Source: Escherichia phage UE-S1
Sequence record: ON568341.1
DNA: 64,000 bases
Strand: one strand, 5' to 3'
Under the pieces are notes generated by a model, which was given only the letters and a program-made list of their open reading frames with translations, did not search any database and was not told where the DNA came from. Below, in pieces: positions 8,282-36,827 of this stretch. The position numbers and the translations under genes were made by a program. Numbering within the stretch: the stretch's first letter is position 1; each line of letters starts with the position of its first letter.

Positions 8282-10183
8282 TTACGCACTGATTGTTACA
8301 GTTGCAGTATCTGTTTTATTACCATCAGCAGTAGCCACTGTAATGACTACAGAACCTTCTTCTAGAGCAGTTACTAATCCCTCATCACTAATAGATACTT
8401 TAGTAGGTTCATCTGCACTATAAGTTACTGATTTGTTAGTTGCGTTAGATGGAAGAACTTCTGGAACTAGTTGAACTGTTTTAGTACCTGATAGTGAAAG
8501 TTCAGTAGTTTTAGGTGTTAAACTAACACTGGATACAGGAACTGGAATATTAACAGTAATAACACCTTGACCTGTTTTACCACTTCCATCAGCAGCAGTT
8601 GCGATAATGTTTGCAGTACCATTAGTTAGTGCAGTTACAATACCAGTACTAGCATCAACTTTTGCTACAGCAGGTTCACTAGAAGACCATGTTACAGATT
8701 TATTAGTTGCGTTAGATGGAAGAACTTCAGCAGCCATTGCTTGAGTTGCTTTAACAGCAGTCAATGTTTTAGTTGCTGGAGTAACATTAATAGATGCTAC
8801 AGGAACTGGAATATTAACAGTTACCACGCAAACTTTAGTAAATCCACCATCAGATGTGGTTGCTGTAATATTTGCAGTACCGTTTGCAACAGCAGTGATT
8901 AACCCAGTTGGACTTACCGTTGCGACACCCTCAGCAGAAGTAGTGTATGAAATATCTTTACGACGAGCGTTATCTGGAATAACAGATGCAGTTAATTGTT
9001 GAGTAGCACCTACCGAAGTTAGGGTTGCGGTCAACGGAGTCATATTAATACCAGTTACTGGGATCGTTACATCAATCACTGATTCAGCAGTTTTAGCACC
9101 ATCATCAGTGGTAACAGTAATAGTTGTAGTACCGTTATCAACCGAAGTTACTAGACCAGTATTACTAACTTTTGCTACGTCTGGATATGAAGAAACATAT
9201 GAAACTGCTTTATTGGATGCAGTTGCAGGAGCAACGGTTGTTTCTAATTGTTTAGTATCACCTAATGTTGAGAATGTATAAGTACTAGGAGTCATAGTGA
9301 CACCAGATACCGGTGTTTTCACAGTGATAGTAGTAGTATCAGTTTTAGCACCATCTTCGGTTGTTGCTGTAATCACCACTGTACCGTTAGCAACACCAGT
9401 TACTAGACCAGAAGTAGGGTTAACGGTTGCTACATCAGGTGTTGCTGAAGACCATGTAACGTTTTTATTAGTTGCATCATCAGGAGATACTGTAGCCGTT
9501 AATTGTTGAGTACCGCCAACGTTAATTGTTGCAGTTTTAGGAGAAACAATAACACCACTAACTGGAGTTGTTACGGTAAATGCACAAACATCGGTGAAAC
9601 CACCATCATGAGTAGTAACTGTTACATTTGCATTACCATTAGCACGGGCAATTGCTAAACCAGTTTCAGCATCAACTTCAACTATTGTTGGAGCAGAGGA
9701 ACTATAACTTACTGTTTTATCATTTGCATAATCTGGATCAATTGTAGCTGATAGCTGTTGTGTACTACCAACTTTAAGTGCTACAACTTTAGGTGAAATA
9801 ATAACACCATCAACTGGAGTAGTATAATCACGTTTAACCACACGACCATTGTTCAATTTAATAATACGACCCATATAAAGAGTAGTATATCCCTTACTAA
9901 TCCCATCATCTACATAAATCATGAATGAATTGTCTTGAACCATATTAATTGCGTCTACTGGTTTAACGGAATTTGGAATGTCGATACCACGGGTATCATA
10001 CCAACACATGGAAACTTTGTAATAGATATCACCATTATCATTTATGAGATCATAAACGTTACTGGAACGTTGACGGTTAATATATAAAGTTTCGGTTAAC
10101 ACCTTACCATCGATTTTAGCGACAGAAACTTTAATACCACCAATACCAAATGGCAATTTACCTTCACTAGATATTGCTTTCAT
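8282..10183 (-). CDS. Ig-like (Big_2-type) repeat protein, possible virion decoration protein
   Basis: Only convincing - strand gene; ~150-aa N-terminal domain then about six ~80-aa repeats (VTVTTHDGGFTDVCAFTVT, ITATTEDGAKTDTTTITV, ITVTTDDGAKTAESVIDV); AAGGAAAG RBS. Confidence 0.75.
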   Translation of the reverse strand: MKAISSEGKLPFGIGGIKVSVAKIDGKVLTETLYINRQRSSNVYDLINDNGDIYYKVSMCWYDTRGIDIPNSVKPVDAINMVQDNSFMIYVDDGISKGYTTLYMGRIIKLNNGRVVKRDYTTPVDGVIISPKVVALKVGSTQQLSATIDPDYANDKTVSYSSSAPTIVEVDAETGLAIARANGNANVTVTTHDGGFTDVCAFTVTTPVSGVIVSPKTATINVGGTQQLTATVSPDDATNKNVTWSSATPDVATVNPTSGLVTGVANGTVVITATTEDGAKTDTTTITVKTPVSGVTMTPSTYTFSTLGDTKQLETTVAPATASNKAVSYVSSYPDVAKVSNTGLVTSVDNGTTTITVTTDDGAKTAESVIDVTIPVTGINMTPLTATLTSVGATQQLTASVIPDNARRKDISYTTSAEGVATVSPTGLITAVANGTANITATTSDGGFTKVCVVTVNIPVPVASINVTPATKTLTAVKATQAMAAEVLPSNATNKSVTWSSSEPAVAKVDASTGIVTALTNGTANIIATAADGSGKTGQGVITVNIPVPVSSVSLTPKTTELSLSGTKTVQLVPEVLPSNATNKSVTYSADEPTKVSISDEGLVTALEEGSVVITVATADGNKTDTATVTISA

Positions 10184-25554: not shown

Positions 25555-25562
25555 TATAAATA
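25555..25562 (+). promoter_or_regulatory. T4-late-type TATAAATA box
   Basis: Exact TATAAATA ~30 nt upstream of tail fibre ATG, just after the nrdG terminator. Confidence 0.45.
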
Positions 25563-25593: not shown

Positions 25594-28293
25594 ATGATGT
25601 CAAAGAAAATATATGGTGGATTAGATGTCACACATAATGTGACAGTTAATGGAAAAAGAACAATACAAGGTATTAACAAACAAGTGTTTGACGAAAATGG
25701 TAATATGGTGTTGGATACATATTCAAAAAATGAAATGAATGATATCATTGGTATGTTACCAATTTCACATTATGGTTCCATGAACTATCTACCTGCTGGG
25801 GTCGGTGGGGATTTCAATGGTGCATCAGAAAATCAGGCATATCGCAGGAATAAGGTATTATTGGAAAATGATGGAACACTCGTTCTTTTGCGTAGTGGTA
25901 CAAACGGTAGTGTTGAAGGTTTATATTATTCTTATTTGTCTAATGCATTAGCAGTTACTGATATGAGTCGTACAATTAACACAAGTCGTCAATACAAACC
26001 AGGATTCTTCGGTCCAAATCGTGTTGCACTTGGTTTATTTAACACTGATCAAAATATTATAATGGGGAGATATAAAGATATTTCAAACAACACAATTGGT
26101 ACATTCATTTCTATTACTAATGGTACACTTAATGATACATTACACACAGGTTTTTTTGTAAATCAAACTGATATATCACCTGAAGGTGGTGTTGAATATG
26201 CTATGATGGCAGAAGACGGTTCAATATATGTTTTTAATGTAATTAATGAAAATAATAAATTTGAAATAGCCATTGTTAAAGTTGTATTTAATGTGGATAA
26301 TGGTTCTTACACAGCAACCCGCATCACAGGGTGGACTACAAAAACATTTTATAATACTACTTATTCTGGGCAAAATAATATTGTGATAACTAATGCAATG
26401 ACGTCAACTAATATTGCGGATAAGCCTTATGTATTTGTTCCTCCGAATTTGTATGGTATGGGGATTTATATGACATCTATTGATTTATATGTTGCACAAC
26501 AACCAGGAACACAAAATTTTCGTTTCAGGATGAATGGTGACGCTTATTTCGCCATGCCAACATATAGTTCGCGTCCACAACACAATTATAGTTTCACGTT
26601 CGATATGAACTCAAAGCAATGTACATTAGATGCAGGTAACGATATTGGCTCCTTCCAAGCACCGTTGGTTATAACAAATACAGGTTCTGACTTAGTTGCA
26701 TCTGGTAATGTGTTGAATTTAGACCCACTATATGACCACAATGGATATAGAAACATTTATAGTTCATATTTTTATTTAAATTCTGGTGACGTGTTTTGTA
26801 CTGCATGTCCAAACTTAGCAGAGCCACTCGCTATGCAAAAAGCAAAGTTTCCTGTGCAAATAGTATATAACATGTTAAATGTTCGTGCTGTTATATCATC
26901 AAACTTCATAGGTGGTATCGTCCGACCATCATTTGGTTCAGCGGTTGGTTCATATATTAATGGCGTTGAACTACTTCCAGATAACAGTACTAAACAATAT
27001 TCACGAGCATCTGGTTCAGGTGGTTTTAGTCCGTCATATGCAGTTCATAAAAGTACTCCGAATTTTACATTTCAATCGTTATCATTGGGAACAATTCAAG
27101 GTTATGAACCCACCACTGAGCGTAAAAATGTAAGTGAAAATAACAACAATAGAATTTTCATTAGTACTGTGTCTGGGTCAACAGTTACAACTAATGGTGG
27201 TATTTTTATGGTCGGACAACGTTATTCACAATCACTGTCTTTTGATAAAAACTTAAATGGTACAGGTAGTATTAGTGTTTCGCAATCAGTTCTTGATGGG
27301 TTCAGAGACTCTGAATATGCTAAAGTTTTAAGTGATTGGAATTTATCTCCGCAAGCGGGTAAAGATATGACATTGTTTGTACCGCAACAAGCGGATATTC
27401 CAGCATTTGTCATGCTCAGTACAATAACTAATGATTTTAAAAACTACATTAGAATTGCTGAAGTTAATGTAAACACCAGAGTAGGTGAAATCAAATCGAT
27501 AACATTCAAGCGTTTAGTTCTTGAAAATAGATATGGTGATAGTTTCACACCGAATGTTGGCGGTTATATTGCACCATCATCTGTTGGTTTAACAATTTAT
27601 GATGGTGGTTCTTTTTATTTCATTGGCGGTTCAGATCCATTAACACATCCAACAATTGGTAATACAGCAACACACATATTTCGTGCATACGTAAACAAAT
27701 CATCTGCACAATTTGAGAGTTTTATTATTGATGGTATCCATGCGTACTATAATCAAGGCCGTCAATTCACTGCATTACCTGATATTGGATTTGGATATTT
27801 TGATACAATAGACTATGATAACAAAATGATTTTCCGCAAATGTGGAACTACTATTGAAGAATATAATAACTGGAAAGAACAAGGTAATCCAATCAACGTT
27901 GTTTCACAAGATGTTGCACAAGGATTTGTTGTTTATTTTACAGAAGAAACTCCAGTTATTCTTTCTGGTAAATCATTTACCTTACCAGTGTCAAATATTG
28001 ATTTAAGAACAATAAAGCCAAACCCAGCCAATACAACATTTCATGTATATGTTAAGTTAAAACAAGGATTAGTAACTTATCATATAACTACCGATGTTAT
28101 TTCAGAAACTGGGACAATTGCATATAATATATTGTGGATAGGAACAATTAGAACTAACGATATTCAAATTGTATCAATTGATATACAAAAACGTTCACGA
28201 TTGGATATTTTTGGTGCTTCACTTGAAGCGGCAGGGGTTTCGTTCCCAGTCAGCTACGGTCTACCATCACAAACAGGAACCATAAACTGGTAA
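25594..28293 (+). CDS. tail fibre protein (paralogue A, 899 aa)
   Basis: Large Ser/Thr/Asn/Gly-rich protein; paralogous to 28911-31643; conserved C-terminal module ending TGTINW; TATAAATA late-promoter-like box upstream. Confidence 0.65.
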   Translation: MMSKKIYGGLDVTHNVTVNGKRTIQGINKQVFDENGNMVLDTYSKNEMNDIIGMLPISHYGSMNYLPAGVGGDFNGASENQAYRRNKVLLENDGTLVLLRSGTNGSVEGLYYSYLSNALAVTDMSRTINTSRQYKPGFFGPNRVALGLFNTDQNIIMGRYKDISNNTIGTFISITNGTLNDTLHTGFFVNQTDISPEGGVEYAMMAEDGSIYVFNVINENNKFEIAIVKVVFNVDNGSYTATRITGWTTKTFYNTTYSGQNNIVITNAMTSTNIADKPYVFVPPNLYGMGIYMTSIDLYVAQQPGTQNFRFRMNGDAYFAMPTYSSRPQHNYSFTFDMNSKQCTLDAGNDIGSFQAPLVITNTGSDLVASGNVLNLDPLYDHNGYRNIYSSYFYLNSGDVFCTACPNLAEPLAMQKAKFPVQIVYNMLNVRAVISSNFIGGIVRPSFGSAVGSYINGVELLPDNSTKQYSRASGSGGFSPSYAVHKSTPNFTFQSLSLGTIQGYEPTTERKNVSENNNNRIFISTVSGSTVTTNGGIFMVGQRYSQSLSFDKNLNGTGSISVSQSVLDGFRDSEYAKVLSDWNLSPQAGKDMTLFVPQQADIPAFVMLSTITNDFKNYIRIAEVNVNTRVGEIKSITFKRLVLENRYGDSFTPNVGGYIAPSSVGLTIYDGGSFYFIGGSDPLTHPTIGNTATHIFRAYVNKSSAQFESFIIDGIHAYYNQGRQFTALPDIGFGYFDTIDYDNKMIFRKCGTTIEEYNNWKEQGNPINVVSQDVAQGFVVYFTEETPVILSGKSFTLPVSNIDLRTIKPNPANTTFHVYVKLKQGLVTYHITTDVISETGTIAYNILWIGTIRTNDIQIVSIDIQKRSRLDIFGASLEAAGVSFPVSYGLPSQTGTINW

Positions 28294-28304
28294 AGGATTA
28301 TACA

Positions 28305-28892
28305 ATGGCATATAAAATAAGAGCAGATCTTAAAGCAATGGAACAGGTTACAGTACAAGGTAAAAGAACTGGACTTGGTGTGTTAGGTAATAATATGACG
28401 TATTATCCAACAAATTCAGATGGGGAATGTACTTTCCCATCTATTACAAAAGATGATATTGATTTTATTGTAAATGGTTTTCCCATTACACAATATGGTG
28501 AATTATATGATAATGAAAATCTAAATATTACATCATCTGGTAACAAACTTACATTTAATAGAGAGATACCATCATTTATTGGTGGTTATCTATACAAGTT
28601 TCCGGCAGTTTCTGTTTTTGCATCACCAGTTACATCGGGAACACAGACTCAATATGTATATGCAACATTGGTTCTAGGTGAACCAATTTATAAAGTATCT
28701 CCGATACAAATGCAAGAATCTGAAATTATAATGTTTATTGGTACTATTATTGTTGGAACAAGTGGTATTACAAATATAAACATCGATAAGGTGTCAAGAT
28801 TTAGTACGTTTAGACCTAACGTTACACAAAAAGGTTCGTCATTCCCAGTTAGTTCTGGAAAACCATCCGAAACCGGTTCGATTAGTTGGTAA
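28305..28892 (+). CDS. small tail-fibre-associated protein sharing the fibre C-terminal module
   Basis: 195 aa; C-terminus (ITNINIDKVSRFSTFRP..SGKPSETGSISW) homologous to the C-termini of both flanking fibres. Confidence 0.55.
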   Translation: MAYKIRADLKAMEQVTVQGKRTGLGVLGNNMTYYPTNSDGECTFPSITKDDIDFIVNGFPITQYGELYDNENLNITSSGNKLTFNREIPSFIGGYLYKFPAVSVFASPVTSGTQTQYVYATLVLGEPIYKVSPIQMQESEIIMFIGTIIVGTSGITNINIDKVSRFSTFRPNVTQKGSSFPVSSGKPSETGSISW

Positions 28893-28910: not shown

Positions 28911-31643
28911 ATGTCATCAAAACGAATTATAGGAAGTGCTGAGATCCTTGGAAACTTAGCGATTGGTGGAAAATATGCAATGCGTACATTTAACGGAACT
29001 TCCCCCGATGCAAACACTGGAATAGTTAATTATCCAATATATAATAGGTCGGAAGTACAACGTATTTTAGACATGCTACCAATATCACGTATAGGAGAAA
29101 TGGATTATCTTCCATTAAACGTGAATGGCTCATATGAAGGGGCAACATCAAATTCAGATATATATCGCGTTCAACCGACTATCATTGAAGATGATGGAAC
29201 TGGTGTGGTATTACGTGCAGGTACTAATGGTAGTGAAAAAGGTTTCTATTATTCTTTCATACGAGATTTAAGAAATGTTTCTTCTTTAACTCAAGATATG
29301 GTCATTTCAACCACAAGTAAATATAAACCATCCATTCTCAGTGCTGGGGAAAGTGTTACTAGATTTATTGGTTCTAATGGGTATGAGCTTTTAGTTTCAT
29401 ATACATCGAACTTAAATTATATTTTTACGTTAACAAATGGTACATTCAATGAAACATCCCATATCCATGCTAAATTGGTTGGTACACAATTTAATACGGA
29501 TAAACCATTATATGCACATATAGTTGGGGCAAATATATTCATTTGGTGTAAAGATACAACAGTAACTAATGGTGGCATGGCATATACATTATACACCGTA
29601 TCAAAAAGTGATGTGATTAATGGCACGATGACATCTTTTGCTAAAGTTACAGGATTTTCTGGACAAACAGTTAGAAATACAAGCTATAGTTCATCAAACA
29701 ACATTCGTGTATTTGATAGTTATTTTTCCACAAATTCTGACTCGGACTCTCTATTTGTTATTAACAGTCCCGTGAATAGTGTAGAGTATATTGATTATAA
29801 TGACTATAATATCCAAGCGAATGCCAGTTCTGATAACTCTAGAATACGAGTTACTTTATATATAACACCACGTTTCAGTACACCATTGATTGTATCTCCT
29901 GTATTCGCAACAGGTATAAGTTTTGTTTATACTATTAGCTCAAAATCTATGTCATTGGACGGTAGTGCCAGAGCACCAGTTACAGTATCGTATACTAATA
30001 ATAAGTTTGTGGTTTCTAACCAGTTTGAAATTTCAATGAGTAATTTTACTGGTTCAAAGAACAGTTTATCTTCATTAGGTGATTGTGGCTCAATATGTCA
30101 AACAACAGATGGTCTAGTTTTCACTTCAAAATCCAGATGGGTTTCTGATGAGACATATGGCTTACAACTATATAAAGTTCAAGGTACACCATACGATAGT
30201 TGGGTTGCTAGTTCCCGTAAAGCAAGTGATTTAATAAACGTAAATGTTAAACCAACATACGGTTCGGCTGTAGGTGAAAACTTACTTGGTGTTAGATTCA
30301 TTGATACCAGAAAGATACTTCTTGCATGTTCAAGTACTAGCAATGGTGTAACTTATGGTTATGATAGTACTGTGTATTCTCAAATTGGGGAAAATCCAAC
30401 ACATACATATAATAGTGTTACTACTGGAAAATCTATAGAAGGGTTTGCACCTGAATCAGAACGTAAATATCTAGGTAATAGTTATGATTACAGTGCTATG
30501 ATTTCGTTAATCGCAGAAGACGGTACAGTAAGGTCTTATGGTTCATCATTTATTGAAGGAATTACCAAAGATGCAACTGGGTTACTAGATCCAGTTACAA
30601 TGACATTCTCTGGAAAATATACAATATCTGATGCTACTTTAATGGAGTTAAAACAATCTATCATTACTAGCTCTAAAATTTCTGGTACTAGTACTTCTAG
30701 AATATGCTTTTATTATGTACCTGACACTACATTCTCAAGATCTATGGCAGTCGTTTGTACATACAGCCCAACTAATAACCAAGGGTATGCTATTTTTGCT
30801 GAAGTTGATGTTGTACTTAGTGGTTCTGAAATCACAAGTGCATCAGTATATTCAACTAGATACGAAGTTGAAGATAATGTTTCTGGTATACAAAGCAATG
30901 CAATATTAAAGCGTTGCACGGGAATGACAGTTGCGAAATACACAGGGTTCAATTATCTTGGAATTGATACAATTCACCAGTTCACTGTACCTGGCGATGT
31001 TCATCAAAAAATGATGATAGCTAAAGTTAAAAATGGAGATATTAGTAGTAATCGTTATTTCACAACTTATCATGTTAATGCTAATAATAGCTTTGCTTTC
31101 CAACATGGTGCAATTCCCAATGTTGGGTTTGGGTATTATAACTTCAACATTTCAGATTTACAGACAAAAGCAGTTTTTTCTGTATTTGGTACAACTGAAG
31201 CACAAATGGATGGTTTGATTGCGGGGACTGGAGCAGTGCTGAATAATTATGTCATTGTGTCACAGGACGTTGCACAGGGTTTTAACGTATACTTCACTCG
31301 TGATGTACCAGTGTTTTTGGGTGGAATGTTTGACAGACTACCAGTTCAAAGTATAGATTTGAAAACTATTAAAACTAATCCTGCTAACAGTACTTTTTAT
31401 ATTTACATTCAAATGGATCGCAACACTGGAAAAGCGGCATACGTTATTAGTACTACCCTTCTCGATGAGACATTGACAAATGTTTATATTGGTAATATCA
31501 TCACTGGAAGTACAAGTATCACGTCGATTGATACTGAAAAGGTAACTCGCTTCTTGACCTACCGACCTAGTACCACAAAACGTGGGTCCGCAATACCTGC
31601 CAGTACTGGTGTACCATCTGGGCCTGGCTCCCGTTGGAAATAA
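28911..31643 (+). CDS. tail fibre protein (paralogue B, 910 aa)
   Basis: Shares N-terminal (MLPIS.IGEM.YLP) and C-terminal (SQDVAQGF..TIK.NPAN) blocks with 25594-28293. Confidence 0.65.
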   Translation: MSSKRIIGSAEILGNLAIGGKYAMRTFNGTSPDANTGIVNYPIYNRSEVQRILDMLPISRIGEMDYLPLNVNGSYEGATSNSDIYRVQPTIIEDDGTGVVLRAGTNGSEKGFYYSFIRDLRNVSSLTQDMVISTTSKYKPSILSAGESVTRFIGSNGYELLVSYTSNLNYIFTLTNGTFNETSHIHAKLVGTQFNTDKPLYAHIVGANIFIWCKDTTVTNGGMAYTLYTVSKSDVINGTMTSFAKVTGFSGQTVRNTSYSSSNNIRVFDSYFSTNSDSDSLFVINSPVNSVEYIDYNDYNIQANASSDNSRIRVTLYITPRFSTPLIVSPVFATGISFVYTISSKSMSLDGSARAPVTVSYTNNKFVVSNQFEISMSNFTGSKNSLSSLGDCGSICQTTDGLVFTSKSRWVSDETYGLQLYKVQGTPYDSWVASSRKASDLINVNVKPTYGSAVGENLLGVRFIDTRKILLACSSTSNGVTYGYDSTVYSQIGENPTHTYNSVTTGKSIEGFAPESERKYLGNSYDYSAMISLIAEDGTVRSYGSSFIEGITKDATGLLDPVTMTFSGKYTISDATLMELKQSIITSSKISGTSTSRICFYYVPDTTFSRSMAVVCTYSPTNNQGYAIFAEVDVVLSGSEITSASVYSTRYEVEDNVSGIQSNAILKRCTGMTVAKYTGFNYLGIDTIHQFTVPGDVHQKMMIAKVKNGDISSNRYFTTYHVNANNSFAFQHGAIPNVGFGYYNFNISDLQTKAVFSVFGTTEAQMDGLIAGTGAVLNNYVIVSQDVAQGFNVYFTRDVPVFLGGMFDRLPVQSIDLKTIKTNPANSTFYIYIQMDRNTGKAAYVISTTLLDETLTNVYIGNIITGSTSITSIDTEKVTRFLTYRPSTTKRGSAIPASTGVPSGPGSRWK

Positions 31644-31649
31644 TTTTAA

Positions 31650-31678
31650 AGCTCGTCTATTGACGGGCTTTTCTTTTG
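31650..31678 (+). terminator. intrinsic terminator
   Basis: AGCTCGTC / GACGGGCT stem (one G-U) then T-rich run. Confidence 0.6.
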
Positions 31679-31711
31679 TGTGTATAATACAAAGAAATAT
31701 AGGAGGAAATT

Positions 31712-32278
31712 ATGGTCAAATCATTACTACCACCACCAAAACGACATAAAATCAAAGAAATGAAAGAACAACGCACATTAAAGATGTACAACAACTTAGT
31801 TAAGTTACTTTGCAAAAGCCCATCACTCAAAGAAGTATTCACAACAGATGATGATCGTAATGCACTTATTGAGATGAAATATATGCTCAGTAAAATGTCC
31901 TTTTACAAATTTGTCAAAGAATACTCAACTGAACCATTCAGTCCTCGTTGGCGAGTCAAACCAAGAGAGTATTTTTTCGGTGGTTCATATACTGATATCA
32001 TTCAAGATACGGTGATAGGCGTAGAGTTCGAGATTGATTATGAGCCTAATGGTGTGGAAAACTGGCAGATTGACAAACATTTACCAAGTGAAGATGAAAT
32101 TTATGTTTATGCAAGAAAACAGACAACCTTCAGTTCAAGAATTGCTCTTAATAATTTAGATTCATTTATTATTTTCTATACACGTGTAGGTGTAGATAAA
32201 ATGGTAACTAAACTCAATGAATTATCATTACAACAAAAACAGATTAATGCATACAAAGACATTACAGATTTATACTAA
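31712..32278 (+). CDS. hypothetical protein, tandem paralogue 1 of 3
   Basis: Shares S.LK....T.DDR..L.E.KY.LSK N-terminal pattern with the next two ORFs. Confidence 0.5.
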   Translation: MVKSLLPPPKRHKIKEMKEQRTLKMYNNLVKLLCKSPSLKEVFTTDDDRNALIEMKYMLSKMSFYKFVKEYSTEPFSPRWRVKPREYFFGGSYTDIIQDTVIGVEFEIDYEPNGVENWQIDKHLPSEDEIYVYARKQTTFSSRIALNNLDSFIIFYTRVGVDKMVTKLNELSLQQKQINAYKDITDLY

Positions 32279-32284
32279 TGAGGA

Positions 32285-32806
32285 TTGGATATGTTTTTTG
32301 GACAGTTAAAAAAACCTAACAGTACTTTAATTTGGCATGAAATCATCTTTAAAATTATATCTAAAAGCTACTCACTAAAAGATATTATCAAAACAGATCA
32401 TGATCGACATGTTCTGTTAGAAGCAAAATATAAATTGAGCAAACACCCGTTACTTTCGTTAATCATTGATTACGTTAATGATTATGAATCCAGTCGTTGG
32501 CAGTGGGAAGACGGAGGTTTATTTCGTGGAAAAACATTCTACGGTGCCGAACGATATGTATTCAGTGATACAGCAAATGATGTTAAGTTTGCTATTAGAA
32601 ACTTTAACTCCAAAGAAAATGATTATCTTGAAAGTGGAGTTAAGGTGTATATAGATAATAATAGCAATGTACTTACATATGACGAATCACTAATTATGTT
32701 ACAAATAATGCGTGGAGTTGAAAGTGTAAGACACAATCTTACTAAGTTGAAAATCCAGCAAAATGATATACATAATAGACAGAAAATTAAGGGTTTATAT
32801 AAATGA
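32285..32806 (+). CDS. hypothetical protein, tandem paralogue 2 of 3
   Basis: YSLKDIIKTDHDRHVLLEAKYKLSK. Confidence 0.5.
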   Translation: MDMFFGQLKKPNSTLIWHEIIFKIISKSYSLKDIIKTDHDRHVLLEAKYKLSKHPLLSLIIDYVNDYESSRWQWEDGGLFRGKTFYGAERYVFSDTANDVKFAIRNFNSKENDYLESGVKVYIDNNSNVLTYDESLIMLQIMRGVESVRHNLTKLKIQQNDIHNRQKIKGLYK

Positions 32807-33312
32807 TTTCATTTTTCAAAAAGAAAGAAAAAGTTGATGAAACTGGATTAGAATCGTTTCTATGGACTCTTATCATTAAAAAAAGTCCATTGATGAAAGA
32901 ATATGCTATCAATGATGCTAATAGAAAAACTATCATTGAATACAAATATGAATTATCAAAATGTGATCCAATTGTTTATCACTTTGCGAAGTACTGTTCT
33001 AACAATTTATCGGATATCACTATTGAACACGAGTCAGTACCAATGAGTTTTCCTTATGGTGATTGGGTAGATACTTTTGATATTTTTGATGGTTCAAATG
33101 GTTTCAGTTTCTTTTACTCGTCAAATAAAGCAAATGTTCGTATTAAAACAGAGATAGGTTGGACACAGCATAGCTCAAATAAAGAAGATTATAATTTACT
33201 AGCTGACGTATACCGAAGTGTGAAGAATTCAAAGGATATTGATGAAAGAATTAAAAAGCAAAATCGTATTTCTTTATCACTTGAAACATACAAGTCAAAG
33301 TATGGTGGTTAA
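32803..33312 (+). CDS. hypothetical protein, tandem paralogue 3 of 3
   Basis: SPLMKEYAINDANRKTIIEYKYELSK. Confidence 0.5.
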   Translation: MISFFKKKEKVDETGLESFLWTLIIKKSPLMKEYAINDANRKTIIEYKYELSKCDPIVYHFAKYCSNNLSDITIEHESVPMSFPYGDWVDTFDIFDGSNGFSFFYSSNKANVRIKTEIGWTQHSSNKEDYNLLADVYRSVKNSKDIDERIKKQNRISLSLETYKSKYGG

Positions 33313-33314
33313 CT

Positions 33315-33716
33315 ATGACTACAGTTGATGATATCTATAGTACTATACGAAATATGAGTACAGATAGAAAAGTATTTGGTGATAAAGAAAAATCTAAGTG
33401 TTATGGTATTGATTCTTTTGATATAATTTCGTATGAGTACAACACGAATGGAAATAGTTCACTGAATATCGTCTGCCCTCGTGACCCAGAAAATAATTTT
33501 ATGTATGTTGAAATTAATAATGATGGGATGTTTTTTACAAAAGTTTTCAAAGGTGGTATTAATTACGAACCTATTGAATGTATGAATGAAGAAACTTTCT
33601 TTCAAGAAGATACAATTATCAATTTAGGTTTTAGTTTTGCGGATTATAAAACATTAGAACATGACTTTAATCGTTATTATAACGGTTTCTTAAAGGAGTT
33701 AACAATTTATCTATGA
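33315..33716 (+). CDS. hypothetical protein
   Basis: ORF in array. Confidence 0.45.
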   Translation: MTTVDDIYSTIRNMSTDRKVFGDKEKSKCYGIDSFDIISYEYNTNGNSSLNIVCPRDPENNFMYVEINNDGMFFTKVFKGGINYEPIECMNEETFFQEDTIINLGFSFADYKTLEHDFNRYYNGFLKELTIYL

Positions 33717-34945
33717 ATAACCAATATGTTGAACAAACAATAGTGAAACACTTGGCTGGGTCACAAGCCTACGGAACCAGTACGCCTGAAAGTGATACTG
33801 ATTATCGTGGTATTTTTCTTGCTAATAAAGAATTTATTCTTACGCCATTCTATAAGGTTAAAGAAGTAGCTGATAAAAATGAAGAAGATACCAAATTCTA
33901 TGAGTTAAATCAGTATTTAAAATTATACACTGAAGCCAACCCTAATATTCTGGAATCACTATGGGTTGAACCAGAACACATTGTAGAAAGTACTGAGATT
34001 TATGACTATCTTCGTTCATTTAACCAAAAACTTCTTAGTTCTAAGATTGCATTTTCATATACTGGATATGCATATAATCAGATTAAGCGTATGACAAATC
34101 ATCACGGTTGGATGGATAAAGAGCGAATTGCTGAAAAACGTTTAAATGAGATTTTAGAAGAACACCCTGTCGATGAGGTTCTTGCGTGGATGTATGATTC
34201 ATTCCCACAATATCTTGTTGAACGTTTAGATACATCTAACTTACATCCATTTAATACTAAAAAGATTGATTTTGAAAAATATATGCGTGATACGTCATTG
34301 CAGTTAGTTTCGAAAAATCCATTAAAGCAATATCATTTTGTAAGATTAGTGCATAACTACACTACTGACAAAATTCTAGATCGTGATTTCAATTTATTGA
34401 ATTTTAATAATGGCTATGAACTAATTCATTACGGAGAAAACATTTTTGCGATTATTAAAAATCCAAATGAAAGCACTATCAACGGTGATGGATCATTGCG
34501 TTATTTTTCTAAAGAGCGTAGTACTGAAGAATTGAAAACTAAACCAGAACTAATTGTCAAATTTAACGAAAAAGAATATCAGGAAAATAGTGAGAATAGA
34601 AAAAGTTATCATAAATGGAAAGAAAATCGTAATGCCAAACGTGCTATTTTAGAATCACAACACGGATACGATTGTAAACATGCTATGCACACAATCCGAC
34701 TTTTGAATAGTGCAGAAGAAGCATTACAAAGTGGAATTATTCAAGTTAAACGACCAGATGCACAAATGTTGATGGATATTCGTAATGGTAAATGGAAGTA
34801 TGAAGAAGTCTTAGAATATTTCGATGATAAAGTACAATACATTCGTGATGTTCTATATAAGAAATCAGTACTTCCCAAAAAACCTAACATCAAGTTAGCA
34901 TCGAAAATTATAATTGATATTCGAGAAATGCAATGGTATAAGTAA
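33713..34945 (+). CDS. pol-beta-superfamily nucleotidyltransferase
   Basis: N-terminal GSQAYGTSTPESDTDYRG matches the NTase-fold signature G[SG]..(9-13)..D.D; 410 aa with uncharacterised C-terminal region. Confidence 0.55.
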   Translation: MNNQYVEQTIVKHLAGSQAYGTSTPESDTDYRGIFLANKEFILTPFYKVKEVADKNEEDTKFYELNQYLKLYTEANPNILESLWVEPEHIVESTEIYDYLRSFNQKLLSSKIAFSYTGYAYNQIKRMTNHHGWMDKERIAEKRLNEILEEHPVDEVLAWMYDSFPQYLVERLDTSNLHPFNTKKIDFEKYMRDTSLQLVSKNPLKQYHFVRLVHNYTTDKILDRDFNLLNFNNGYELIHYGENIFAIIKNPNESTINGDGSLRYFSKERSTEELKTKPELIVKFNEKEYQENSENRKSYHKWKENRNAKRAILESQHGYDCKHAMHTIRLLNSAEEALQSGIIQVKRPDAQMLMDIRNGKWKYEEVLEYFDDKVQYIRDVLYKKSVLPKKPNIKLASKIIIDIREMQWYK

Positions 34946-35007
34946 TATATGGGTGTAATAGTTATAAAAATTCCATTACACACCAAATCACTTCAGTGAT
35001 TTATAAC

Positions 35008-35035
35008 TTGACATTGAAAAATAATTATGTATAAT
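35008..35035 (+). promoter_or_regulatory. sigma70-like promoter
   Basis: TTGACA - 16 nt - TATAAT; -10 abuts the terminator hairpin. Confidence 0.5.
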
Positions 35036-35037
35036 TA

Positions 35038-35065
35038 GAGAACTTCATATGGAGTTCTCTTTTTT
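35038..35065 (+). terminator. intrinsic terminator
   Basis: GAGAACT / AGTTCTC stem then T6. Confidence 0.6.
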
Positions 35066-35079
35066 ATAAGGGTGATAAA

Positions 35080-35481
35080 ATGTTAAATGAACGTATTAAA
35101 AATGCACTATATGTATTGAACCAAGAAGTTAATTCTATTCATAAAAGTACTGAGCGATATAAAGTATTACATGAAATTAGACAAGAATTGGAATCCATTA
35201 ATAAGGGAAAATGGGTTCTTGAACGCGAACGAACTATTGTTGAAAAAGCAATTGCAAAATTCATCTCGGAACGTTATGGTAAAATTTCAGAGGAAGATGT
35301 ACTAATGAACTTACATCTTTCACAAACGGAAGTGATGGAGAAATTTCATTTTGATTCATTAGACTGGTTAGAAATGATCATGGAATTGGAAGAAGAATTC
35401 AATGTAGAAGTAGATTTATATTATGAAAAACAAGAAACCAAACTATATGAACTAGCAGAACACATTAAACTAATGATGTAA
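35080..35481 (+). CDS. acyl-carrier-protein-like protein
   Basis: C-terminal FDSLDWLEMIMELEEEFNVEVD matches the ACP phosphopantetheine-attachment region (DSLD..E..M.LEEEF); ~55-aa N-terminal extension. Confidence 0.55.
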   Translation: MLNERIKNALYVLNQEVNSIHKSTERYKVLHEIRQELESINKGKWVLERERTIVEKAIAKFISERYGKISEEDVLMNLHLSQTEVMEKFHFDSLDWLEMIMELEEEFNVEVDLYYEKQETKLYELAEHIKLMM

Positions 35482-35534: not shown

Positions 35535-35909
35535 ATGAGTATACTAGAAATAATAGTTTCAAACATTCTTATTCCATATTGGAAACCAATTTCTTTTGCA
35601 TTATTAATTAGTGGTTCAGCAATTGCGGGTTGGAAAGCTAATACTTATTATACTGGTTATCAAGAAAGTATAGAGCAACAAATAGCCAAAAAAGTTGATA
35701 TAGCACTTGATAAAATGCAACAAGAAAATACAAAAAGCTATCTTGAAACAAAAAAAATTATGGAAGATAATACAAAAGTCATTGAAACAAAGGTTCCTTA
35801 TATAGTAGAACGTGAAGTTTATAAAAATGTTTGTTTAGATGAAGATGGTGTGAAAGTACTGAATGAACTTAAACAAAATTCTAAAGCGGCAAGGAATAAA
35901 TTCAAATGA
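35535..35909 (+). CDS. i-spanin-like protein
   Basis: N-terminal TM helix (ISFALLISGSAIAGW) then charged coiled-coil-like region; overlaps next gene by ATGA. Confidence 0.5.
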   Translation: MSILEIIVSNILIPYWKPISFALLISGSAIAGWKANTYYTGYQESIEQQIAKKVDIALDKMQQENTKSYLETKKIMEDNTKVIETKVPYIVEREVYKNVCLDEDGVKVLNELKQNSKAARNKFK

Positions 35910-36214
35910 AAAAAATGTTAGTACCGTTTATTTCTTTTTTAATTATAAGTGGATGTGCAGAACAAGTAAAAGTACAATCCCCTGCACCAATTAAACAAGA
36001 AATTCTGTTAGAAAGATGTGATGATGACACACCACTACCACAAAAAATTATGATTGACCAAAACGGATTTAAAGGGTATAGTGGGAGTGAAATTCTCAAA
36101 GTTCTTACCCGTTGGGATGCAATCTATAACGAATGTGCATTGAAACATGATGCATTGATCAAAACCATTCGTGATTTACAAGGTAAAGATATTAAAATAA
36201 ATATCAAGGATTAA
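35906..36214 (+). CDS. o-spanin-like lipoprotein
   Basis: Lipobox-like FLIISGC at N-terminus; position immediately after TM/coiled-coil gene. Confidence 0.5.
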   Translation: MKKMLVPFISFLIISGCAEQVKVQSPAPIKQEILLERCDDDTPLPQKIMIDQNGFKGYSGSEILKVLTRWDAIYNECALKHDALIKTIRDLQGKDIKINIKD

Positions 36215-36215
36215 A

Positions 36216-36827
36216 ATGAACAAATATCATGTTTATTATACAACAAAGTTATCCCTTCTTGATGAATTAAATCACCGAAGTACTAAGATGAAACGTTATA
36301 CTTTAAATGGTATTACTTTTCGATATTTCCCACAAAAAGTCCTTACTTTTGTCAAGAATCCAAAATGCGTGGCATGTGGGATTGAAGCCACTGAAGTACG
36401 CATTGAACGTACATTTAGTTCTGATCCAGTTTATGGTAAACCACATTTAAATGTATATGCGGTATGTGGTCTTTATGAAGTGTTGATGACAGTTGATCAC
36501 AACCATCTGGCATCGAAGGGTGGTTGTGATTTAGAGTCAAACTTTAATACTATGTGCTCCAAATGCAATCAACTACGTTCTAATAAAACCGAAACAGTTG
36601 ATGAGTTTCTTGAGAAAGTTAAAGATCGTAATCTTCTCCAAGAACATATGAATAAATTCTTTAACGTACAAAAAAAGAAAAATAACATTGACAAGTCGAA
36701 ACTACTAGAAGAACGTAGGTTACGTCAAGAATTATGGGAAACAGACCATCTATGGCATGTTCGAGAATTTGGTCGTCATATGAAAGCTTTGAAAAAAGAA
36801 CAGAAGAAATTGAATAAACATGATTGA
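36216..36827 (+). CDS. HNH endonuclease
   Basis: VDHNHLASKGGCDLESNFNTMCSKCNQLRSN (HNH core with CxxC); CxxC also upstream (CVAC); strong terminator follows. Confidence 0.7.
   Translation: MNKYHVYYTTKLSLLDELNHRSTKMKRYTLNGITFRYFPQKVLTFVKNPKCVACGIEATEVRIERTFSSDPVYGKPHLNVYAVCGLYEVLMTVDHNHLASKGGCDLESNFNTMCSKCNQLRSNKTETVDEFLEKVKDRNLLQEHMNKFFNVQKKKNNIDKSKLLEERRLRQELWETDHLWHVREFGRHMKALKKEQKKLNKHD

Follow-up and report, generated by a model that had tools for sequence, protein, structure and literature searches.

Background

RlaP and Thg1 modules have been described by Burroughs and Aravind and by Iyer et al. (2021; PMC7824862), and the predicted role of RlaP is to restore nucleotides where RNA ends are damaged, ahead of their ligation (PMC7824862). 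The present work concerns three tandem genes, here called A, B and C, at 31712-33312 of a 64,000-nucleotide (nt) stretch of Escherichia phage UE-S1 (sequence record ON568341.1, one strand, 5' to 3'; hereafter the window), which stand at the head of a gene string closed by a gene of the RlaP family. Jumbo phages commonly carry tandem paralogs of unknown function, and about 10% of the gene products of RaK2 are paralogs (PMC3622015); in kind, this case is an ordinary one. A previous reading of the window, made from the letters alone (the sequence-only reading), had nonetheless singled the three genes out as a local triplication immediately downstream of tail fibre genes, and had suggested a diversifying family of fibre chaperones, injected proteins or anti-defence factors.

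Our analysis establishes A, B and C as a single paralogous family made by local duplication, and points to a transcription unit of their own, distinct from that of the fibre-like genes. We consider the three proteins to be early, non-virion binding proteins of a counter-defence/RNA-repair operon, soluble, of about 20 kDa and belonging to a lineage-restricted family, a reading to which we assign a probability of roughly 0.5.

Paralogy and duplication history

The three genes are the following, with lengths in amino acids (aa).

31712..32278, + strand: paralog A, 188 aa; AB type, phrog_18641; AGGAGG ribosome-binding site at 31702-31707
32291..32806, + strand: paralog B, 171 aa from the ATG at 32291; AB type, phrog_18641
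32803..33312, + strand: paralog C, 169 aa; C type, phrog_7868; overlaps B by ATGA

An open reading frame (ORF) check recovers the three consecutive + strand frames where the sequence-only reading had placed them, together with the ATGA overlap of B and C (32803-32806), and its lengths for A and C are correct. The 173 aa that it gave for B assume a start at TTG 32285; a GAGGA ribosome-binding site (32280-84) abuts this TTG and lies 6 nt ahead of the ATG at 32291, and hence B is most likely 171 aa long.

Similarity among the three proteins is well above chance. A and B align at 29% identity over 175 aa (BLASTP, E=5e-15), while the alignments of C with A (2e-5) and with B (2e-4) cover only the N-terminal 40-67 residues; a search of the 354 stop-to-stop ORFs of the window with any one paralog finds just the other two. 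Among PHROG profiles, phrog_18641 covers both A (7e-75) and B (6.5e-80) from end to end and phrog_7868 is matched by C (1.7e-57), with cross-hits of B to phrog_7868 (1.9e-11 over residues 4-173, its full length) and of C to phrog_18641 (7e-6). A 30-member hidden Markov model (HMM) of the family scores A, B and C at 1e-41 to 1e-50 and no further ORF of the window, and the family aligns end to end once intermediate sequences of relatives are included. This end-to-end alignment, the profile cross-hits and the topology shared by the predicted structures of B and C (see below) thus make the paralogy both real and full-length. The sequence-only reading had seen a common N-terminal pattern followed by divergence; the block does exist, but homology is not restricted to it. 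Conservation across the family is concentrated in an N-terminal block (K-S..L, D..R..I(I/L)..K-Y.L-S-K) and in a Tyr, nearly invariant, that lies 2-4 residues from the C-terminus. The motif first proposed, S.LK....T.DDR..L.E.KY.LSK, holds only approximately; the positions invariant among A, B and C are K35, S36, K40, D46, R49, E54, K56, Y57, L59, S60 and K61 in A numbering. On the basis of the cross-hits, the full-length alignment and the shared predicted fold, phrog_18641 and phrog_7868 form one superfamily; the proteins they contain are the same as A-C and were already catalogued as 'hypothetical'. ORF D (see below), an extra 150-aa ORF of JNE01 and Klebsiella phages, and the ORFs after RlaP were considered as further members and discarded on HMM and search results.

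The region 31600-33800 matches 34 phage records at 88-97% nt identity, all of them Asteriusvirus-type jumbo coliphages or near-identical Salmonella isolates (among them 121Q, PBECO4, G17 and phAPEC6; the closest is ph0011, at 97%), and by sequence the window is assigned to an Asteriusvirus-type jumbo coliphage. A word-indexed protein search returned close relatives only, with fewer matches from a 13-sequence alignment than from 3 sequences. The family was extended with tblastn to JNE01-type coliphages and Klebsiella Alcyoneusviruses, and an exhaustive profile search over 1.8 billion representatives yielded 45 family representatives, most of them on metagenomic contigs. A search for related loci with single proteins gave three for a GAP32 query, GAP32 itself being one of them, and none for an L008 query. 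Copies were then counted by running the family HMM over every fetched locus. Three copies are present in all nine Asteriusvirus-type loci, in PHA46 and in locus L023; two in RaK2, Muenster, RCIP0023, L007, L008, L020 and L021; four in GAP32, fHe-Yen9-04, L018, L019 and L022; and none in PVP-SE1, where RlaP is present. The layout from the paralogs to RlaP is kept, with 2-4 copies per family-positive locus, in 22 related loci from at least five genera.

Reciprocal best hits separate two lineages. A C-type orthogroup spans nearly all lineages (win_C, JNE_3, Mue_2, L007_2, PHA46_3, GAP32_148 and Yen_g143), and an AB-type lineage comprises win_A/B, JNE_1/2, Mue_1, L007_1, PHA46_1 and GAP32_150/Yen_g145. 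Both ancient types are retained in the related genomes examined, always at the head of the RlaP operon, and a C-type member occurs in every genus covered. A and B derive from a duplication inside the Asteriusvirus lineage, and A diverges faster than B. With two old lineages and an Asteriusvirus-specific AB duplication, the apparent triplication resolves into an ancient AB/C pair plus one younger duplication. Local duplication, as first proposed, therefore stands, but not as a single event.

Transcription units

The features that bear on the transcription of the paralogs are listed below.

25555..25562, + strand: TATAAATA, T4-type late promoter motif, 32 nt upstream of the F1 start
25594-28293, + strand: fibre-like gene F1
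28305-28892, + strand: fibre-like gene F2
28911-31643, + strand: fibre-like gene F3
31648..31671, + strand: terminator hairpin with T-tract, from terminator scan and sequence, ending the late fibre-like operon
31660..31688, + strand: sigma-70-type promoter TTGACG-17-TATAAT, 11/12 match, fully intergenic; predicted early promoter of the paralog operon
33315..33716, + strand: ORF D, 133 aa, phrog_22376, function unknown; member of the A-E operon, unrelated to A-C
33713..34945, + strand: ORF E, 410 aa, RlaP-family (PF10127) Pol-beta-type nucleotidyltransferase; final gene of the A-E operon
35008-35035, + strand: sigma-70 promoter, 12/12 match, directly before the next hairpin
35037..35060, + strand: terminator-like hairpin closing the A-E operon, from terminator scan

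Almost all genes of the window lie on the + strand. F1, F2 and F3 are packed without gaps, preceded by a terminator and then TATATAAATAC. After F3 come the hairpin, the overlapping promoter, whose -35 box sits inside the hairpin, the AGGAGG and the ATG of A; the G17 record annotates a terminator at the equivalent place. Downstream, the genes of the string are tightly joined, with ATGA overlaps at B/C and D/E and a 2-nt gap between C and D. The window holds 15 sigma-70-like sites of at least 11/12 on the + strand and 1 on the - strand, and TATAAATA, the T4 late -10 motif, occurs a single time on the + strand in 64 kb, so placed that the fibre-like operon looks like a lone late-type island among sigma-70-type units. 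At the far end of the A-E operon, the hairpin starts 1 nt downstream of the 12/12 promoter, and a transcript from that promoter would hence begin inside the hairpin and escape termination. Rfam and tRNA searches returned no features in the window.

The arrangement before A is not peculiar to the window. A hairpin and a TTGAC(A/G/C)-17-TAnnnT promoter precede the first paralog in ten other lineages (G17, EcMJ, JNE01, the Klebsiella phages Muenster and RCIP0023, Salmonella PHA46, Cronobacter GAP32, Yersinia fHe-Yen9-04 and the metagenomic contigs L007 and L008); the hairpin differs in sequence from one to the next, and it contains the -35 box or is closely followed by it. The promoter is doubled in tandem in GAP32 and fHe-Yen9-04, and none of these lineages shows an ATAAATA late motif at the paralog promoter site. 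An ATAAATA(C)-type element without a -35 box lies about 40 nt upstream of most fibre-type operons checked in relatives, including the extra fibre cassette of G17 and JNE01, and the fibre-type operon of Muenster has an off-consensus version, CTAAATAC; GAP32_145 and fHe-Yen9-04 g139, each of which directly follows an upstream fibre-like gene, showed no late motif in the short stretches inspected before them. The phages concerned are members of the T4-related Group 2 jumbo phages, which lack an RNA polymerase of their own, use that of the host and encode sigma factors and a gp33 orthologue (PMC7824862; PMC11895373), and the mapped transcription starts of the related phage PA5oct carry TTGAC/TATAATA promoters (PMC7318152). 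Taken together, the terminator, the promoter classes, their conservation across lineages and the promoter data from related phages suggest that A-B-C-D-E form an early, or at least pre-late, host-sigma-70-dependent operon apart from the late fibre-like operon. Our literature search found no transcriptome or functional study of the A-C genes.

Relation to the fibre-like genes and the virion

In every lineage the paralogs lie directly downstream of fibre-type genes, and it would be natural to take them for tail-fibre assembly chaperones of the Tfa/gp38/gp57A kind, that is, non-virion helpers of the trimerisation of fibre-like proteins. RaK2 gp534, encoded just upstream of ORF001/002 in circular order, resembles chaperone-dependent fibres (PMC10253068), which also speaks for such a role. 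The conserved terminator and the different promoter class between paralogs and fibre operon in all genera argue against it, and so do the patterns of sequence identity, which are opposite for the two sets of genes. Compared with ph0011, A/B/C are 97/96/97% identical and F1/F2/F3 only 54/42/51%; compared with JNE01, F1/F2/F3 are 70/57/82% identical and A/B/C 32/37/36%. The paralogs thus do not co-vary with the fibre-like genes and evolve independently of them. Klebsiella phages are without F1/F3-type genes and have unrelated depolymerase fibres in their stead, yet one paralog of each type (AB and C) is retained in them, along with D and RlaP. Likewise, the paralogs are unchanged where an extra fibre cassette after RlaP varies among Asteriusviruses, and their copy number (2-4) does not track the number of fibre genes. 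No Pfam or PHROG chaperone family is matched, the PHROG matches being to families of unknown function only, and phAPEC6 encodes a predicted fibre-assembly protein, Gp220, elsewhere (PMC7247149).

The virion proteome of phAPEC6, obtained by electrospray ionisation tandem mass spectrometry, comprises 62 proteins, among which gp323c (the F1 orthologue), gp315c and gp314c are present and gp319c-321c, the orthologues of A-C, are absent (PMC7247149), although a negative result of this kind is not absolute. Absence from the virion is what would be expected of chaperones, and it bears directly on the idea that A-C are packaged and enter the cell with the DNA. Their proximity to virion-protein genes, small size and basic N-termini would fit injected proteins, but these must be made late and the promoter is of the sigma-70 type. 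Both suggestions of the sequence-only reading are consequently disfavoured: a chaperone role is improbable in view of the separate transcription signals in every lineage examined, the lack of co-variation and the persistence of A-C without F1/F3-type genes, and an injected role, with the neighbouring gp323c and gp314c detected in the particle and gp319c-321c not, is very improbable indeed.

The description of F1-F3 as tail fibres is itself plausible, on account of the F1 orthologue in the phAPEC6 virion, the late promoter and mosaicism. The neighbours of the paralogs are late-promoter, fibre-like genes, but between F3 and gp314c/G17_00414, the tail fibre annotated in these phages, no similarity could be detected, and F3 has no sequence relative in the PDB.

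Several observations concern the fibre-like genes in their own right. F1-F3 share a C-terminal module of about 110 aa (phrog_26864), of which F2 is essentially the module alone; F1 and F2 end in a similar ...SFPVS.G.PS.TG.I.W tail, with a looser variant in F3. The three genes are strongly mosaic, at 42-54% identity to ph0011, which is otherwise the closest genome. A cassette of about 3.4 kb directly after RlaP, in which a small ORF and one of 178 aa accompany a 929-aa tail fibre (gp314c of phAPEC6, detected in the virion), is found in G17 (L001 12423-15841), PBECO4 (L011 10420-13838), phAPEC6 and JNE01, and is absent from the window (34945-35080), ph0011, vB_Ec-M-J and Ecwhy_1, a presence/absence polymorphism of a host-range gene. 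In phAPEC6 (MK817115; L005 2997-6410) a single 114-nt coding sequence is annotated between gp323c and gp321c, where phmmer detects ORFs homologous to F2/F3; this stretch looks like an annotation gap or disrupted genes.

Predicted fold and sequence properties

The AlphaFold2 model of C (predicted local distance difference test, pLDDT, 84.7; predicted TM-score 0.77) comprises four helices (17-67), a five-stranded antiparallel meander (73-124) and a 41-residue C-terminal helix, and that of B gives the same order of elements at lower confidence (pLDDT 69.9). Over deep time the beta region is variable and indel-rich, taking up 95 alignment columns for 52 residues, and the length of the C-terminal helix is fixed. 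Conserved polar residues sit on one helix with helical periodicity. A-C have no transmembrane or signal features, are neutral to basic (isoelectric point, pI, 6-9.6) and begin with disordered, Lys/Arg-rich N-termini. Their pI discards the idea of acidic DNA mimics.

In Pfam (E<=0.1), NCBIfam and PADLOC scans of A-E, A-D gave noise-level matches only and no family; a profile search of the PDB over all sequences gave zero matches at E<=10; and Foldseek against viral models found only uncharacterised proteins of RaK2 and of the Yersinia phages fHe-Yen9-03 and fHe-Yen9-04. These results matter for the possibility that A-C are early transcription regulators or nucleoid-associated proteins, with the N-terminal four-helix domain binding DNA and the C-terminal helix dimerising. 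Basic pI, Lys/Arg-rich tails, the polar residues at helical spacing and the first position in an early-type operon are all compatible with such a role. It nevertheless seems highly improbable, given that Pfam and NCBIfam show no helix-turn-helix or other DNA-binding family, the structural search found no significant match of the predicted fold to any DNA-binding protein, and nothing specific favours DNA over RNA or protein as the ligand.

The N-terminal tails, of 10-30 residues, come in two flavours: MFFKKK-like (B, C and many others) and proline-basic, PP.R(R/K)P-like. The latter is seen in A (LLPPPKRHK; window 31712-31790) and in P0027, P0029, P0030 and P0035. The recurring tails may be a short linear interaction motif.

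Selection and divergence

Over six Asteriusviruses, the ratio of nonsynonymous to synonymous substitution rates (dN/dS, Nei-Gojobori method, NG86) is 0.20 for A, 0.18 for B and 0.10 for C; for comparison, D and E stand at 0.05 and the fibre-like genes at 0.19-0.26. Regional maxima reach 0.48 in the 10-residue N-terminal tail of B and 0.39 in the beta region of A, with no value above 0.5, and in C the helical domain (0.09) and the C-terminal helix (0.03) are lower still. Both gene-wide and by region, A-C are hence under purifying selection, somewhat relaxed, and not under positive selection. At a deeper scale the picture is one of rapid change. The identities of A, B and C to JNE01 are the lowest of twelve genes, next to 38% for an acyl carrier protein (ACP)-like ORF, 61% for D, 75% for E and 67% for an HNH endonuclease; between Asteriusvirus subclades the paralogs thus stand at 32-37% identity and neighbouring genes at 61-75%. 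The label of a diversifying family is accordingly apt for the fast deep divergence, but not in the sense of positive selection.

Fast divergence of small genes behind an early-type promoter is also what would be expected of stand-alone inhibitors, and A-C might simply be host-takeover or anti-defence proteins directed at a host protein (a defence effector, RNA polymerase or a nuclease), their place in the RlaP operon being only historical. The absence of their orthologues from phAPEC6 virions, the changes in copy number by lineage and a variable beta surface on a conserved scaffold fit this view, as does their being the fastest-diverging genes of the region at the deep scale. Typical anti-defence genes, however, come and go among close relatives, and both types are core genes whose locus is fixed across at least five genera and throughout the 34 Asteriusvirus-type records. 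Moreover, dN/dS among close relatives shows no sign of an arms race, A-C are not acidic mimics, and neither a PADLOC-related nor an anti-defence family is matched. We see this explanation as unlikely, though a serious possibility. An anti-defence function, as originally listed for the three genes, is for its part a live option, even if no known anti-defence family is matched.

RNA-repair context and proposed function

E matches PF10127 (RlaP) in Pfam at E=2.9e-16, and also phrog_388, and RlaP is found in the same gene string in 22 of the 22 family-positive loci. In 6 of these (including GAP32, fHe-Yen9-04, L018, L019 and L022) the paralogs are interleaved with Thg1; in the five named loci, four paralogs are interspersed with genes for a Thg1-type tRNA-His guanylyltransferase and for a DUF4326 protein, the reading frames overlapping or abutting. 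In two genera the interleaved copies share their string with a DNA methyltransferase; in GAP32 and fHe-Yen9-04 this is an N4-cytosine enzyme encoded just before RlaP. L020 has a gene with an S1 RNA-binding domain directly after RlaP. With RlaP, Thg1, S1 and methyltransferase genes as neighbours, the recognisable cargo of the operon is therefore RNA-end repair together with an anti-restriction-type methylase. D is conserved in Asteriusvirus, Alcyoneusvirus, PHA46-type and most metagenomic loci and was not detected in the Thg1-carrying loci of GAP32/fHe-Yen9-04 type; no annotation was found for D or for the extra 150-aa ORF of some relatives.

Two further observations touch this operon. The RlaP gene seemed at first to be lost from L007, but a 5'-disrupted orthologue is present (9365-9743), which lacks the N-terminal catalytic third and whose in-frame part, 75% identical, corresponds only to residues 127-410; this is a pseudogene or else a frameshift of the assembly. 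The DUF4326 gene, in turn, moves: it lies between nrdD and nrdG in Asteriusviruses (ph0011; L009 105-434) and, in most other relatives, inside the paralog-RlaP operon right after the paralogs (L008 9445-9756, L020 9558-9860, L021 10491-10802, L022 6716-7030, L023 9513-9821).

We base the counter-defence/RNA-repair reading on the operon structure and promoter classes, the co-occurrence with RlaP and Thg1, the translational coupling and the absence from phAPEC6 virions, and also on the retention of both lineages, the fast divergence under purifying selection, the conserved polar face and a confident fold without catalytic match. A-C would then be non-enzymatic cytoplasmic binding proteins in an early counter-defence/RNA-damage module. 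On the N-terminal helical domain, a conserved basic face (R41, K48, Y49, S52 and K53 in C) may bind a common partner, and this face and the fixed-length C-terminal helix could provide a common interaction: oligomerisation, probably of AB-type with C-type proteins and probably through the C-terminal helix, and/or binding of RNA or of a conserved partner. The indel-rich beta sheet might serve lineage-specific target recognition. The proteins could act as adaptors that hand damaged RNA or tRNA to RlaP or Thg1, or as inhibitors that bind a host effector such as an anticodon nuclease, and we hold the two options to be about equally probable. Hints of an interaction with RNA or with RlaP/Thg1 are indirect and consist of the basic pI, the Arg/Lys/Tyr/Ser helix face and translational coupling.

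Several considerations weigh against this proposal. The early class is read from promoter type, and oligomerisation and nucleic-acid binding from sequence and secondary structure. All relatives found are collinear over the whole stretch that begins at nrdD/nrdG and extends to the spanins and the HNH endonuclease, so that the co-occurrence with RlaP in 22 of 22 loci has limited independent weight, and linkage to RlaP, like that to the fibres, could be inherited gene order. Lineages separating the paralogs from the fibre-like genes or from RlaP were sought, and all were collinear bar the Klebsiella phages; consequently, synteny cannot decide between the two links. RlaP occurs in 199 phage records and the family in about 44 (tblastn), which leaves some 150 records, PVP-SE1 with its zero family members being one such phage, where RlaP evidently does not need the family. 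Finally, the paralogs and RlaP evolve at very different rates, as obligate subunits seldom do. A more ambitious version of the proposal makes the family a new and structurally novel component of RNA-damage counter-defence, in which an AB/C hetero-oligomer, formed early in infection, would deliver cleaved tRNAs to RlaP/Thg1 or block the host anticodon nuclease behind the damage, with a hypervariable sheet that would track the diversity of host effectors; we regard this scenario as doubtful.

Neighbouring genes

Beyond the A-E operon, a 133-aa ORF at 35080-35481, the ACP-like ORF mentioned above, scores exactly at the Pfam cut-off for a phosphopantetheine-attachment (acyl carrier protein) signature. 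It is served by a perfect sigma-70 promoter of its own and, at 38% identity to JNE01, evolves fast between subclades. The region 35535-36827 contains a spanin pair, namely an i-spanin (35535-35909) with an N-terminal transmembrane segment and an o-spanin (35906-36214) with a lipobox-like LIISGC, followed by the HNH endonuclease (36216-36827); these genes lie far from any obvious endolysin or holin.

Implications

The value of this analysis is mostly corrective. Adjacency to host-range genes turns out to be misleading, and promoter class and co-variation place A-C in a separate, putatively early operon; hence, to annotate or engineer them as fibre chaperones would be a mistake in work that retargets the host range of Asteriusvirus or RaK2-like therapeutic phages. 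Two PHROG families of unknown function are merged into a superfamily with a confident predicted fold and no solved relative, core to a jumbo-phage clade. Its constant link to RNA-end repair enzymes makes the superfamily a compact target, of 2-4 genes, for the study of host defences directed at RNA. Should the link to RNA defence prove untrue, A-C would be typical fast-evolving early accessory genes, of which jumbo phages have many.

Comparison with known systems

The tail-fibre assembly proteins Tfa (lambda/Mu/P2, Caudo_TAP), T4 gp38 and gp57A resemble A-C in being small, non-virion and the products of genes immediately behind those for fibres. Tfa and gp38 share a late transcript with their fibre gene and co-vary with its C-terminus, whereas A-C have their own sigma-70-type promoter beyond a terminator and show no such co-variation, and there is no sequence or family similarity between the two sets. 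T4 early ORFans and inhibitors of the Acr/Ocr/UGI type are, like A-C, lineage-restricted proteins of about 20 kDa with an early-type promoter, not detected in virions, and share with them fast deep divergence and the lack of an enzymatic motif; we found no sequence or structural similarity of A-C to characterised anti-defence inhibitors (Acr, Ocr/ArdA mimics, UGI and similar). The head-and-stalk fold of XRCC4/XLF/PAXX is an analogy of shape only: scores are marginal, Foldseek gives no match and the order of elements differs, with the four-helix domain before the sheet in the A-C family.

An RlaP nucleotidyltransferase shares an operon with the A-C family in each of the 22 loci, and Thg1 is interleaved with the family in GAP32, fHe-Yen9-04 and related contigs; the predicted task of either enzyme is to restore RNA ends that host RNases have cut (PMC7824862). 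RlaP is usually linked to RNA ligases, many phages have it without the A-C family, and A-C themselves lack the signature of any catalytic family and do not figure among the described components of RlaP/Thg1 systems. Lastly, the PHROG database holds the same proteins as two separate unannotated families, whereas they emerge here as one superfamily, with 2-4 copies per genome, at least five genera and a fixed operon context.

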